Source of the DNA: an uncultured Candidatus Saccharibacteria bacterium
Lineage (GTDB): Bacteria > Patescibacteriota > Minisyncoccia > Portnoybacterales > UBA2143
Assembly (NCBI GenBank): GCA_964594155.1
Contig: CAZQLH010000004.1
Location: forward strand, 1-57,642
Reading direction: 5' to 3'
DNA length: 57,642 bases
Shown: piece by piece, positions 41,474 to 52,622 of the stretch
Layout: each line of letters starts with the position of its first letter
How positions within the stretch are numbered: position 1 is the stretch's first letter
Notes under the pieces: generated by a model
The model's database searches: none
The model's input: only the letters and a program-made list of their open reading frames with translations
What the model was told of the DNA's origin: nothing
Program-made: the position numbers and the translations under genes

Positions 41474-41540
41474 AGATTAAATTACGCAGACTAATGTTTT
41501 ATCGTGAGAAAAACGCCAAAATGTATGTCTGTTAAAAATT

Positions 41541-42195: not shown

Positions 42196-42242
42196 TTGAC
42201 AGCGGATTTGGGATAATATAGAATAATAATGTTCTTTGAAAA
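42196..42242 (+). promoter_or_regulatory. rRNA promoter and boxA-like element
   Basis: TTGACA, 17 bp, TAGAAT (42219-42224); TGTTCTTTGAAAA at about 42230-42242. Confidence 0.7.
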
Positions 42243-42524
42243 TAGAATAAGAAATTAAACAATTGCAATTTTGTGCAGTTGTCCCAAATTATTTTTATTG
42301 AGAGTTTGATCCTAGCTCAGGATGAACGCTGGCGACGTGGATAAGGCATGCAAGTCGAACGACCCCGAGTTTATCGAGGGGTAGTGGCGAACGGGTTAGT
42401 AATACGTAGGGATCTACCCTGAAGTCTGGAATAACTTGGAGAAATCTAAGTTAATACCAGATAGTCCCGCAAGGGTAAAGTTCCCCGCAATACTGCGGGG
42501 TTGCGCTTCAGGAGGAACCTGCGC

Positions 42525-45730: not shown

Positions 45731-45804
45731 GGGCGTATAGCTCAGTTGGTTAGAGCGCATCTCTGATAAGGATGAGGTCCTTGGTTCGAATCCAAGTACG
45801 CCCA
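45731..45804 (+). tRNA. tRNA-Ile(GAT)
   Basis: Acceptor GGGCGTA/TACGCCC, anticodon loop CTGATAA, T-loop GTTCGAA. Confidence 0.95.
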
Positions 45805-45906
45805 CAAGGTTATCCACAGGCATATTGTGGATTTTTTTGTTACAATATAGGTAGTAAAATTATCTTGAAAAAACTTAGCTTATAATGAAAGGGGGTGAAA
45901 AATGGA

Positions 45907-46587
45907 ATGGTTATTCAAACATGGACAGAAGTGGTAACAGCTTCTCTTCAAACACTCTGGTCTGGTTTTATTGGTTTTTTGCCAAATCTGTTAGGGGCAA
46001 TTATAGTTTTTATTATTGGTTGGATAATTGCTGTTCTTTTAGGCAAGTTGGCTTCTCAGATTATCAGAACTTTAAGAGTTGATCAGGTTTTAGAGAAGAT
46101 GGGTTTTAAGAAGAGTTTTGAAAGAGCTAATTTAAAGTTGGACTCAAGCATGTTTTTTGGCGAATTAGTGCGATGGTTCTTTATTATCGTCTTTTTAATG
46201 GCTGCTACTGATATTCTTGGTCTTTACCAAGTAACAGAATTTCTAAGAAGGGTTCTTCTTTATATTCCTCAGTTAATTGTTGCTGTTTTGATTTTATTAG
46301 CTGCTGTATTGATTGCTAGTTTTATGCAAAAACTTGTTAAGGCTAGCGTGGAAGCAGCTGGTTTTGGAGCATCTAATTTTTTAGCAACATTAACTAAATG
46401 GAGTATCCTGGTTTTTGCTGGTTTGGCTGCTTTGTTGCAATTAGGTATTGTTCCGTCTTTAATTCAAACCATCTTTACGGGAGTAATAGCTGCCTTTGTT
46501 GTTGCATCTGGCTTAGCTTTTGGACTAGGAGGAAAGGATTTTGCAACTGAGGTTCTTGGCAAGATAAAAAGAGACATTTTAGGATAA
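45907..46587 (+). CDS. TM-helix-repeat membrane protein (mechanosensitive-channel/CmpX-like) inside the rRNA spacer
   Basis: Repeated FLP.L.GA.I.FIIGW and YIPQLIVAVLIL units, A.GLAFGLGGKD; SD-like GGGGGTG upstream of ATG 45907. Confidence 0.82.
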   Translation: MVIQTWTEVVTASLQTLWSGFIGFLPNLLGAIIVFIIGWIIAVLLGKLASQIIRTLRVDQVLEKMGFKKSFERANLKLDSSMFFGELVRWFFIIVFLMAATDILGLYQVTEFLRRVLLYIPQLIVAVLILLAAVLIASFMQKLVKASVEAAGFGASNFLATLTKWSILVFAGLAALLQLGIVPSLIQTIFTGVIAAFVVASGLAFGLGGKDFATEVLGKIKRDILG

Positions 46588-46646
46588 ACTTTAAGAGGAT
46601 TATATAAATTAATTGAAAAATCCGAGATCTTTCGGTTGTTATGGTA

Positions 46647-46675
46647 TTGACATAGATTAGGAATAAATATAATAT
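46647..46675 (+). promoter_or_regulatory. Separate promoter upstream of 23S
   Basis: TTGACA, 17 bp, TAATAT. Confidence 0.65.
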
Positions 46676-46688
46676 TATATATATAGAT

Positions 46689-46730
46689 ATGAATAAACTA
46701 AAAAGATCATTATACATAGAAAGCGGTTAA
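46689..46730 (+). CDS. Possible 13-aa leader peptide MNKLKRSLYIESG
   Basis: Short ORF just after the promoter; last codons GAAAGCGGT are complementary to the terminator 5' arm. Confidence 0.3.
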   Translation: MNKLKRSLYIESG

Positions 46731-46763
46731 TAACTGTCTATTTGTTATTTGTCTCTGAAATGA

Positions 46764-46787
46764 AGACCGCTTTCAAGCGGTCTTTTT
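46764..46787 (+). terminator. Intrinsic terminator in the 23S leader
   Basis: AGACCGCT-TTCA-AGCGGTCT then TTTT. Confidence 0.7.
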
Positions 46788-48983
46788 AGTTTAATAGGGC
46801 AATTAGGATAGTTTTTTGACAATTAGGAAAAGTAGTTTTTCCGTCAATAGTAAAATTGGAAAAGTAATTTGTCTAAATTTTTAGTGGTAAAATTTAGACG
46901 GATAAATATTAAGGGCCTGTGACGGATGCCTTGACATAAAGAGCCGATGAAGGACGTGGTGTGACTGCGATAAGCCTCGGGAAGGTGTCTAACAACCTTT
47001 GATCCGGGGATGTCCGAATGGGGAAACCTAATTTTGCGATAAACAAAATTAGCCTGGTCGAATGACTGGGCAGGGAACTCGGGGAAGTGAAACATCTCAG
47101 TACCCGGAGGAAAAGAAAATAAGTCCCGACGTAAAGTCGGGAAATATTCCCTAAGTAGCGGCGAGCGAAAAGGGAAAAGCCCAAACTTATTTTATTTAAT
47201 TTATTAAGTAAGATGAGGGTTGCAAGGTAGTAACGCTCTGAAGCGTCCCTTGGTTGCTTTAAAGTAACTAAAGGATGTCTCAGAAGAAGTTTATTAAATA
47301 AAGGCTGGTTAATTGAATCTTGCTGGAAAGCAGAACCAAAGAGGGTAATAGTCCCGTAAGTGAAAATTCCTTTATGCTTCTAGTTATTATTCTTAAGTAC
47401 CTCGGGACCAGACTATCCCGTGGGAAGCTGGCAGTCCTATGCTGCCAAGGCTAAATACTCTTTATGATCGATAGCGCACCAGTACCGTGAGGGAAAGGTG
47501 AAAAGTAGCCCGTTGAGGGCGGTGAAATAGAACCTGAAATCATGGGCCTACAAAGAGTCGGAGCCCCGATTACGCTTGCGTAATCGTGGGTGACGGCGTG
47601 CTTTTTGCAGAACGAGCCAACGAGTGTATGTAAACGGCTTGTTTAAGTCCGTTAAGGACGGAGACATAGTGAAAGCGAGGATTAATAGTCCGTCCCGACT
47701 TTACGTCGGGGTAGTCGTTTGTATACGACCCGAAGCCAGAGCGAGCTAACCATGGCCAGGATGAAATCTCGACGAAAGTCGGATGGAGGTCCGCACCCAC
47801 TAACTGTGCAACGTTAGGGGATGAGCTGTGGTTAGAAGTGAAAAGCTAATCGAGCCTGGTAATAGCTGGTTCTTCCCGAAATAGCTTTAGGGTTAGCTCT
47901 CTGTTAATGTCTTAGGGGGTAGAGCACTGGATGGGATATGGATGGGTTCGTCCCGCCTATCTCAATCAAACTCCGAATACCTATAATTTCTGCGAAGGAG
48001 TCAGACTGTGGGGGCTAAGCTCCATGGTCAAAAGGGAAACAGCCCAGACTGTCGTCTAAGGTCCCTAAATCAAACTAAGTGGGAAAGGAAGTGAAGTTTC
48101 TCTGACAGCTAGGAGGTTGGCTTAGAAGCAGCCATCCTTTAAAGAGTGCGTAACAGCTCACTAGTTCAGAGATTTTGCGCCGAAGATTTAACGGGGCTAA
48201 AGTTTGATACCGAAGACACAGCTGTCCATCTTTTAGATGGGCGGGGTAGGGAAGCGTTCTCTAATGCGTTGAAGTCCACGACGTGAGTCGGGATGGAGTT
48301 TAGAGAAGTGAGAATGTTGGCATAAGTAACCACAAATCCGGTGAGATACCGGATCGCCGAAAACCCAAGGTTTCCTTGGCAATGAACATCAGCCAAGGGT
48401 TAGGCGGGCCTAAGTTGCGGCCGCGATAAGCGGTCAGTAGCGATGGACAGACGGTTAATATTCCGTCCCCTCAGTATTTTTTCGATGAAAGGACGAGGTT
48501 TAGTAGCTTGAGCGTCTTATTGGATTGTCGTTCTTGGCTTAAGAGCGCTGGTTAGGCAAATCCGGCCAGCATCAACTCAAGAGTTGAGAAAAGGTTTTTC
48601 TACGGAATAACCAATTCAAGTGAGCAGGCCTCCAAGAAAAGTTTCTAGAGTTAAGGATATTGAGTCCGTACCGTAAACCGACACAGGTGGGTAGGTCGAG
48701 TAGACCAAGGCGAACGAGTGATTCCTTGTGAAGGAACTCGGCAAAACAGCGGGTGTAACTTCGGGATAAACCCTGCCATTATCACTTGTGATATTGGCCG
48801 CAGCGAAAGATTCCTGACGACTGTTTATCAAAAACACAGCTCCCTGCTAACTCGCAAGAGGATGTATAGGGGGTGACGCCTGACCAATGCTAGAAGGTTA
48901 ACGTTTGACGTCTTTCTCTTCGGAGTTAGGCGAAAGGCCGAAGCCCTAGTGAATGTCAGCGATAACTATAATCGTTCTAAGGT

Positions 48984-52211: not shown

Positions 52212-52384
52212 CCTCCTAAGATTAGGTATCATAGATTTGTAGAAGATGACTACATTGATAGGCTCTAGGTGTAAGCGCGGTAACGCGTTAAGCCGAGGAG
52301 TACTAATAAATCATCATTTATCCGTCTAAATTTTTTTACTAAGAATTTAGGCAAATTACCTTTCCAATTTTTTTTGCTTAGTCA

Positions 52385-52492
52385 TTGGGTGACTATACTA
52401 AAGGTGTTCCACCCGTTCTCATTCCGAACACGGAAGTGAAATCCTTTGAGGCCGATGATAGTGCTTTTGCGCGAAAGTAGGTAGTCGCCTAA
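52385..52492 (+). rRNA. rrf: 5S rRNA
   Basis: CCACCCGTTCTCATTCCGAACACGGAAGTGAA, GCCGATGATAG and GAAAGTAGGTAGTCGCC; flanked by an extended stem. Confidence 0.93.
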
Positions 52493-52516
52493 TGACTGAG
52501 CAAAAAAGTAAAGTTG

Positions 52517-52593: not shown

Positions 52594-52622
52594 GATACGG
52601 CCTTAACCGCTTTACTATATTT

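Follow-up and report, generated by a model that had tools for sequence, protein, structure and literature searches.

A probable leader-peptide-type transcription attenuator preceding a separately transcribed 23S-5S rRNA unit in a Patescibacteria genome

The 23S and 5S ribosomal RNA (rRNA) genes in a 57,642-nucleotide (nt) stretch of DNA from an uncultured, ultra-small marine bacterium (contig CAZQLH010000004.1; the whole stretch is called the window below) form a transcription unit separate from that of 16S rRNA. The leader of this unit is probably a ribosome-mediated transcription attenuator of the leader-peptide type, which gates the transcription of 23S and 5S. A short upstream open reading frame (uORF) follows the promoter and is itself followed by an intrinsic terminator, and two segments within the uORF are complementary to parts of that terminator. 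The order from 5' to 3' is promoter, uORF, terminator, boxA, processing stem, 23S, and 5S (Table 1). The arrangement suggests that translating ribosomes themselves throttle the synthesis of large-subunit rRNA. Translation of the uORF, termination at the hairpin, the sign of the control, and its role in the physiology of the cell are what we infer from these parts.

An earlier note on this DNA had pointed to the promoter, a 13-codon ORF, a 9-nt complement between ORF and hairpin, and the terminator, and all four are read directly from the sequence. It had also recognized the geometry of an attenuator. Compensatory changes support the pairing between antiterminator and terminator, but the antiterminator is larger than had been described, with a second segment (segment A, 46694-46708) that had gone unseen.

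Alternative pairings in the 23S leader

Of the 10 pairs in the terminator hairpin, 5 are G-C, and no stronger terminator-like site was found between positions 41500 and 53000. Folded alone, it reaches -15.5 kcal/mol (z = -5.3), and termination itself is predicted. The last three codons of the uORF, GAAAGCGGT (46719-46727), are perfectly complementary to ACCGCTTTC (46766-46774) in the 5' arm and loop of the terminator. This 9-mer is present at just these two sites in the window, where shuffling gives an expectation of 0.14 matches per window. Two or more matches were obtained in 3 of 100 shuffles, and two copies no more than 50 nt apart would be far less likely still.

When the full leader (46682-46795) was folded, a long interrupted helix was predicted, with a minimum free energy (MFE) of -28.7 kcal/mol (z = -4.4). 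In this helix, segment B, at the end of the uORF, pairs with B' in the terminator (B:B'), and segment A, in the first half of the uORF, pairs with A' (A:A'), that is, with the terminator 3' arm, the U-tract, and the four bases that follow. In partial folds, B:B' arose once the 5' arm was present (-16.5 kcal/mol), and the terminator folded when the ORF region was omitted or masked (-15.8 kcal/mol with that region left out). The two states envisaged in the earlier note were thus both obtained by folding, B:B' with the uORF free and the terminator with the uORF masked. The uORF region alone (46682-46735) gave -0.4 kcal/mol, which is weaker than its shuffled versions, and is unstructured.

Conservation and covariation in relatives

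Relatives were collected through homologues of the neighboring MscS-like gene (thousands of homologues), with contigs taken by identity and with scans of GTDB genomes and JGI metagenomes. This gave 166 loci, 98 of which had 23S just downstream, corresponding to 74 distinct 23S leaders. The promoter, uORF, CCGC-type terminator, boxA, and 23S followed one another in that order in 57 of the 74, and these 57 are the related leaders referred to below. They are labeled Parcubacteria, Patescibacteria, Portnoybacteria, and Taylorbacteria. The earlier note had made its proposal depend on conservation of the uORF and the 9-nt complement in related 23S leaders, and both were kept in 57 distinct leaders, with compensatory changes. 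The terminator core of the relatives is CCGC...GCGG with a U-tract, located 20-58 nt past the uORF stop. The same logic was also found with different sequence: B is GCGGG against an arm of CCCGC in one leader (L033) and CGGCATATA against TATATGCCG in another (L057).

A profile hidden Markov model (HMM) of the element gave one match per locus in 1.16 Mb of collected sequence and one in the window. The 23S start motif lay within 700 nt downstream in 76 of 86 plus-strand matches, the others being variant motifs or contig ends, and the element was never found before 16S in the 1.16 Mb searched. Two more distant relatives (L142 and L138) go straight from a plain promoter to boxA and 23S, without the attenuator, which makes the module look like an element inserted after the promoter and ahead of boxA in a single large clade.

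Covariation was analyzed on an alignment of 50 sequences, with the antiterminator tested as a named structure. Across these relatives the terminator is 93% paired, with one compensatory change from G-C to U-A. The antiterminator is 79.7% paired, compared with 42-54% when the partners were slid by 1-3 columns, and its doubly changed cells number 43, where shuffles give 25. None of 500 shuffles attained the observed covariation, a control that does not amount to a probability because the sequences are related. In A:A', compensatory pairs were found at columns 18-146 (AU 23, CG 6, UA 5) and 19-145 (UA 37, CG 7), and codon 4 of the uORF covaries with the two bases just past the U-tract (CTA/TAG, ACA/TGT, ATA/TAT, TTA/TAA). 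In B:B', 41 sequences have UA at pair 50-118 and 4 have CG. In these 4, G has replaced A in column 118 and, correspondingly, C has replaced U in B (GCGGC/GCCGC in place of GCGGT/ACCGC), but the base opposite column 118 within the terminator itself is still U. This covariation of codon 4 and of the end of B indicates that both A:A' and B:B' must form, since otherwise there would be no reason for the patterns.

The B:B' duplex energy ranges from -10 to -20 kcal/mol across the relatives. The antiterminator is the MFE state in 37 of the 57 leaders; in 19 it is the terminator, the gap between the two states often being no more than 1-2 kcal/mol. When a ribosome footprint was masked at the stop codon, the full terminator was obtained in 37 of the 57.

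One subclade (L149, L137, L146, L141, L139, L152, L160, L148, and L050) has a terminator stem of the form TACCGC...GCGGTA. In these leaders of the L149 type ("TACC" subclade), the distance from the -10 hexamer to the ATG is 21-41 nt, and an extra hairpin, ATCCGAG...CGG, lies between the stop and the terminator. Tyr, Phe, and Leu are frequent in the peptides encoded by their uORFs, and the A:A' pairing looks weaker.

Features of the leader ORF

The uORF was found in 57/57 related leaders, with 10-23 codons and mostly 13. The first ATG past the -10 hexamer served as the anchor of each leader, so the invariance of this ATG in the alignment is by construction; its distance from the B core is fixed (±3n) in 57/57 leaders. 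The distance from ATG to B is 34 nt in 42 leaders, 31 nt in 3, 37 nt in 5, and 64 nt in 1 (L104, 2177-2320), where an in-frame insertion of 30 nt brings the uORF to 23 codons. In a distant clade it is 20, 23, 23, and 23 nt, in a frame of its own. The sole off-frame class, 35 nt in 2 leaders (L099, 2224-2338; L144, 520-637), retains an open frame of 17 codons across B. The +1 shift in these two arises in an A-run and results in a different 17-residue peptide. Another leader (L036) has one codon less before A and one extra after it. The flanking spacers are without periodicity: the distance from the -10 hexamer to the ATG ranges from 6 to 41 nt, and that from B to the terminator from 35 to 71 nt, with mod-3 counts of 21/20/16. 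The uORF variants of L099, L144, and L104 are natural, ready-made mutants.

Between the ATG and the end of B, the ATG frame contains a stop in 0/57 leaders, compared with 55/57 and 34/57 in the other two frames; the stop-free share among shuffled versions of the uORF is 35%. The identity of the stop codon varies (TGA in 34 leaders, TAA in 19, TAG in 4), and the stop is often doubled (TGATGA, TAATAA, TAATGA). In leaders without the first stop, the next one follows 1-3 codons further. The frame behaves like a translated one, and by this comparison of sequences the uORF would be translated. The motif RACTG (TAACTG or TGACTG; 46733-46737 in the window) is conserved 3' of the uORF stop in most leaders and in part provides a back-up stop codon.

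The uORF peptides differ by clade (for example, MNKLKRPLYIESG, MNKLYTYFYLESG, and MLKNHNNKRKR). Their conserved parts are K-R-P (from AAAAGACCA) and S-G (from AGCGGT), and the rest varies freely. A function of the peptide, as might be read from K-R-P and S-G, was discounted, since these codons are fixed by RNA pairing.

In the window, the ATG lies 13 nt past the -10 hexamer, for a predicted 5' untranslated region of about 4-8 nt. The corresponding distance is 6-18 nt in most related leaders, with 7 nt in L012, L013, L017, and L022, and it exceeds this range in the TACC subclade. At the 6-13 nt that most leaders show, the messenger RNA of the leader would be leaderless or nearly so, with a structure-free start.

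Promoter and boxA

The 23S-5S promoter was also picked up by a promoter scan, with 10 of 12 matches, and transcription is predicted to start at about 46681-46685. All 57 related leaders have TTGACA or TTGACT, a spacer of 16-18 nt, and a TAnnnT hexamer, with scores of 9-11 out of 12. In the interval from terminator to 23S of the related leaders, no conserved promoter was found; the best scores there were at most 9 out of 12, at positions that are not conserved. Thus, all 23S-5S transcription that starts at this upstream promoter must pass the switch. A second promoter at the conserved TTGACA of 46816-46821 was considered and rejected, as this hexamer is without a -10 hexamer and is part of boxA. 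The heptamer ATTAGGA occurs three times, in the promoter spacer (46656-46662), just before boxA (46802-46808), and within boxA (46822-46828), and is common only to the window and its closest relatives, L001 and L087.

The earlier note had placed a boxA-like motif, TGTCTCTGAAA, at 46750-46760, between uORF and terminator. This assignment was rejected: TGTTCTTTGAAAA and the motif are separated by an indel as well as substitutions, and in folds the motif becomes part of the terminator stem, to which it contributes an A-rich flank on the 5' side. In a fold of 46755-46795, CTGA in this flank pairs with TTAG past the U-tract, lengthening the stem. The motif that does fit boxA lies downstream of the terminator and resembles the textbook boxA of the 16S leader, which stands directly after the 16S promoter. 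In the relatives, the 23S-leader boxA has the consensus CTTTGACAATTGAATA at the same place, 10-30 nt past the terminator, and a version with no more than 4 mismatches from CTTTGAAAATTGAATA is present there in 36 of 57. Since the polymerase meets boxA only after the terminator, read-through of the terminator cannot be the work of the Nus complex.

In the gap between boxA and the processing stem lies TTTCCGTCAA (46838-46847), which recurs in many relatives as ACTTTCCGTCAA, ATTTCCGTCGAC, and CATCCGTCAAAA. This element, for which no complementary partner was found, may serve in processing or as a signal of the boxC type. The 16S leader contains an ATG frame of 9 codons (ATGTTCTTTGAAAATAGAATAAGAAATTAA, 42227-42256) that overlaps boxA. 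Because no terminator follows, this frame is probably fortuitous.

Proposed mechanism and alternative explanations

In the mechanism that we propose, which follows the idea of the earlier note, transcription would start at about 46682 from the near-consensus promoter, and the first 50 nt of the RNA, which are unstructured, would carry the 13-codon ORF with little or no 5' leader. With no ribosome on the ORF, B would capture the 5' arm of the terminator upon its emergence. A would then lock the 3' arm and the U-tract, so that the terminator is blocked and the polymerase continues through boxA, the stem, 23S, and 5S. With a ribosome finishing the ORF and standing at the (tandem) stop, B would be buried and the terminator hairpin would form. 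The transcript would then end at about 46786-46792, before boxA. An ample supply of initiation-competent ribosomes would thus lower the output of large-subunit rRNA, and a shortage or blockage of such ribosomes would raise it.

A bolder version of this mechanism is a hard-wired ribosome feedback loop, in which the pool of working ribosomes directly sets 23S-5S synthesis via the near-leaderless mini-ORF and balances it with the separate 16S. We put this forward tentatively, as a possibility with somewhat less than an even chance. In such a loop, the sole route to 23S and 5S in this branch of Parcubacteria would lead past the mini-ORF, the mini-ORF would be translatable only by assembled, initiation-competent ribosomes, and its translation would terminate the transcript. 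The idea of ribosome feedback was once proposed for Escherichia coli, and the loop considered here would be a physical version of it.

Several results weigh against the attenuator. The shuffle controls are limited by the relatedness of the sequences noted above, and unsupervised RNAalifold on the 50-sequence alignment returned the terminator alone and not the antiterminator. The terminator is already the MFE state in the 19 leaders mentioned above, and in 20 of the 57, including the window, footprint masking gave no full terminator and left A:A' as a competitor. With thermodynamics this unclean, kinetics (the local hairpin versus distant pairing, and following ribosomes) would decide, and the attenuator model is plausible but folding is no proof of it. 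Moreover, the uORF has no Shine-Dalgarno (SD) site, although the 16S rRNA of the window ends in a normal anti-SD, CACCTCCTT, and SD sites are used elsewhere, with a good one on the membrane gene. Initiation at the uORF would therefore have to be leaderless or structure-free. Conservation at the amino acid level is uninformative, since the K-R-P and S-G codons lie on RNA-paired bases. In four metatranscriptomes from studies containing the window, conserved 23S from many organisms was heavily covered and the leader was uncovered; in groundwater metatranscriptomes compared with the relative L019, an exact 23S contig of 151 nt was obtained, with no coverage of the leader.

The same switch could also be read as a sensor of translation stress. 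Ribosomes stalled within the uORF, either through inhibitors or at K-R-P or KRKR, would cover A and leave B free, B:B' would form, and 23S-5S would be induced so that new ribosomes make up for the disabled ones, much as attenuators of resistance genes respond to antibiotics. Such a sensor would use the same parts as the attenuator proposed above, Lys/Arg-rich peptide motifs are present in two clades (K-[IL]-K-R-P and KRKR), and uORF attenuators that sense ribosome inhibitors are in the literature (bmrCD, yxjB/tlrB, msrD, and the topAI uORF). However, the K/R codons lie on bases that are fixed by pairing with the U-tract (AAAAAGACC versus GGTCTTTTT), and the TACC subclade is without K/R residues (e.g., MNKLYTYFYLESG), so there is no conserved stalling motif. 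We consider a stress sensor unlikely, and within the attenuator reading, a meaning in terms of ribosome supply is more likely than stalling. Another alternative would be an RNA switch that works independently of translation, governed by polymerase speed, by nucleoside triphosphates (NTPs) or guanosine tetraphosphate (ppGpp), or by a bound protein such as a ribosomal protein or Nus factor, or else a nuclease site in the A:A'/B:B' helix; the ORF would then be incidental. That both pairings are conserved regardless of the ORF and that there is no SD site would fit such a switch. Kingston and Chamberlin in 1981 reportedly observed translation-free attenuation in vitro with the E. coli rrnB leader, which would be a precedent. 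An incidental ORF, however, would not change its length in steps of 3 nt while its flanks vary freely. The position of the ATG, the lack of stops in its frame where the alternative frames have them in 55 and 34 of the 57 leaders, and the interchange of TAA, TGA, and TAG with back-up stops all speak for a frame that matters, and the 30-nt spacer is without a visible conserved ligand- or protein-binding structure. An explanation without translation therefore appears improbable to us.

A small gene standing on its own would show the same order of promoter, ORF, and terminator, and the leader might be such a micro-gene, ended by this hairpin. Alternatively, the hairpin might terminate the upstream membrane gene. 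Transcription of 23S would then come from unregulated leak-through or from an unrecognized promoter. The promoter lies past the membrane-gene stop (46587) and before the hairpin, which is therefore not the terminator of that gene. A micro-gene fits poorly with a peptide that is not conserved where RNA pairing permits variation and with the tolerance of a +1 frame variant, and a plain terminator needs no two upstream segments that covary with its arms. Together with the lack of a conserved promoter after the terminator and the finding of the element only before 23S in the sequence searched, this makes an independent gene highly improbable.

Comparison with known systems

Like the trp, his, leu, thr, pheA, and ilv leader-peptide attenuators, the 23S leader has a promoter-proximal short ORF and an intrinsic terminator before the structural genes; the antiterminator strand overlaps the end of the ORF, and a ribosome at the stop would favor the terminator. 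Unlike in these amino acid attenuators, the genes under control here would be those of rRNAs rather than biosynthetic enzymes. There is no regulatory codon run, and no residue is consistently repeated; there is also no 1:2 pause or anti-antiterminator hairpin. The start is almost leaderless and has no SD, and the two-segment antiterminator sequesters both terminator arms and the U-tract. A permissive Rfam scan gave only sub-threshold matches, with 19.8 bits for Trp_leader (RF00513; threshold 41) and 22.5 bits for the rimP leader (RF01770; threshold 47). These scores for leader families reflect resemblance of layout only.

Inhibition-sensing uORFs, such as those of Bacillus subtilis bmrCD, yxjB/tlrB, and vmlR, streptococcal mef/msrD, and E. 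coli topAI-yjhQ, also use the occupancy of a uORF to choose between terminator and antiterminator and tie the output to ribosome function. They control resistance or toxin genes through drug-induced stalling at defined codons, whereas here the target would be large-subunit rRNA and there is no conserved arrest motif. The synthesis of rRNA is known to be controlled at promoters (for example, by ppGpp, initiating NTPs, and Fis) and by boxA antitermination. Antitermination in rrn leaders (boxA with NusB-NusE-NusG-SuhB) and the E. coli rrnB leader share with the present case an rRNA leader, a boxA, and a terminator-like hairpin between promoter and mature rRNA; the difference is that boxA here is downstream of the terminator. 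We know of no conserved translated ORF or ORF-embedded antiterminator in the E. coli rrn leader.

Unlinked rRNA genes in Patescibacteria, or the Candidate Phyla Radiation (CPR), were described by Brewer et al. (bioRxiv 10.1101/705046), who asked how stoichiometry is kept. In the window, too, 16S and 23S-5S are separate units, here with a protein gene between them; no leader switch is described in that work. Full texts were searched for rRNA operons controlled by a leader peptide or an attenuator, whether in CPR bacteria or in other organisms. The search brought up only attenuators that sense amino acids or antibiotics, together with the study of unlinked rRNA genes, and no published case of an rRNA operon gated by a translated leader ORF. 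Ribosome-mediated attenuation as a class is known; an rRNA target, a two-segment antiterminator, and a near-leaderless ORF are not known for it.

If the proposal is true, it provides a direct molecular route for ribosomes to measure themselves. It would also answer the question of subunit balance in bacteria with unlinked 16S and 23S, which Brewer et al. raised and left unanswered. CPR bacteria, with minimal genomes and few regulators, would then solve a central problem of growth control with about 110 nt of RNA, in an element that is compact and self-contained.

Genomic setting

According to Rfam and ARAGORN, the window contains a single rRNA locus, in a genome of the CPR/Parcubacteria type. 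The sequencing runs containing the window sequence are marine or seawater metagenomes. The switch element sits in the 310-nt gap from the MscS-like gene to 23S.

Table 1. Positions of the features in the window
Feature	Position	Strand	Description
16S-leader boxA	42230-42242 (to 42245)		TGTTCTTTGAAAA, textbook, directly after 16S promoter
16S rRNA	from ~42300		with introns
Transfer RNA for Ile (tRNA-Ile)	45731-45805		
MscS-like membrane protein gene	45895-46587		230 amino acids, PF05552; between tRNA-Ile and 23S
23S-5S promoter	46647-46675	+	-35 TTGACA 46647-46652, 17-nt spacer, -10 TAATAT 46670-46675
uORF	46689-46733	+	ATG 46689, 13 codons, MNKLKRSLYIESG, TAA 46728-46730, second in-frame TAA 46731-46733
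Segment A	46694-46708	+	TAAACTAAAAAGATC, uORF codons 2-7; pairs with A'
Segment B	46719-46728	+	GAAAGCGGTT, last three codons and first stop base; pairs with B'
A-rich/T-rich 5' flank of terminator	46750-46761	+	TGTCTCTGAAAT; "boxA-like" motif of the earlier note
Intrinsic terminator (predicted)	46762-46792	+	hairpin GAAGACCGCT-TTCA-AGCGGTCTTT (46762-46785), then U-rich tract
B'	46765-46774		5' arm and loop of terminator
A'	46779-46793		terminator 3' arm, U-tract, and bases just after
23S-leader boxA	46814-46829	+	TTTTGACAATTAGGAA; resembles 16S-leader boxA; downstream of terminator
23S processing stem, 5' strand	46852-46905	+	leads into mature 23S 5' end
23S rRNA	from ~46900		Rfam: 46899; mature 5' end ~46901; several introns
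23S processing stem, 3' strand	52317-52375	+	5S next
5S rRNA	52385-52493		

The processing stem around 23S is about 53 bp long, and the duplex between 46852-46905 and 52317-52375 was calculated at -71.6 kcal/mol. Of the two "local hairpins" on either side of 23S, each forms a better duplex with the other than by folding on itself.

About 110 nt past 5S, TTAACCGCTTT (52603-52613) is the exact 11-nt complement of AAAGCGGTTAA (46720-46730, B and the stop), and this pairing could bracket the whole 23S-5S transcript. Long-range pairing of B with TTAACCGCTTT was rejected as a general feature, since the sequences trailing 5S in seven relatives showed nothing similar.

Between the stop of the membrane gene and the 23S promoter, at 46622-46635, there is a weak hairpin, CCGAGATCTTTCGG, with TTGTTAT after it. 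It is probably a poor terminator of the membrane gene itself. A longer palindrome is found at this site in the closest relative, L001.

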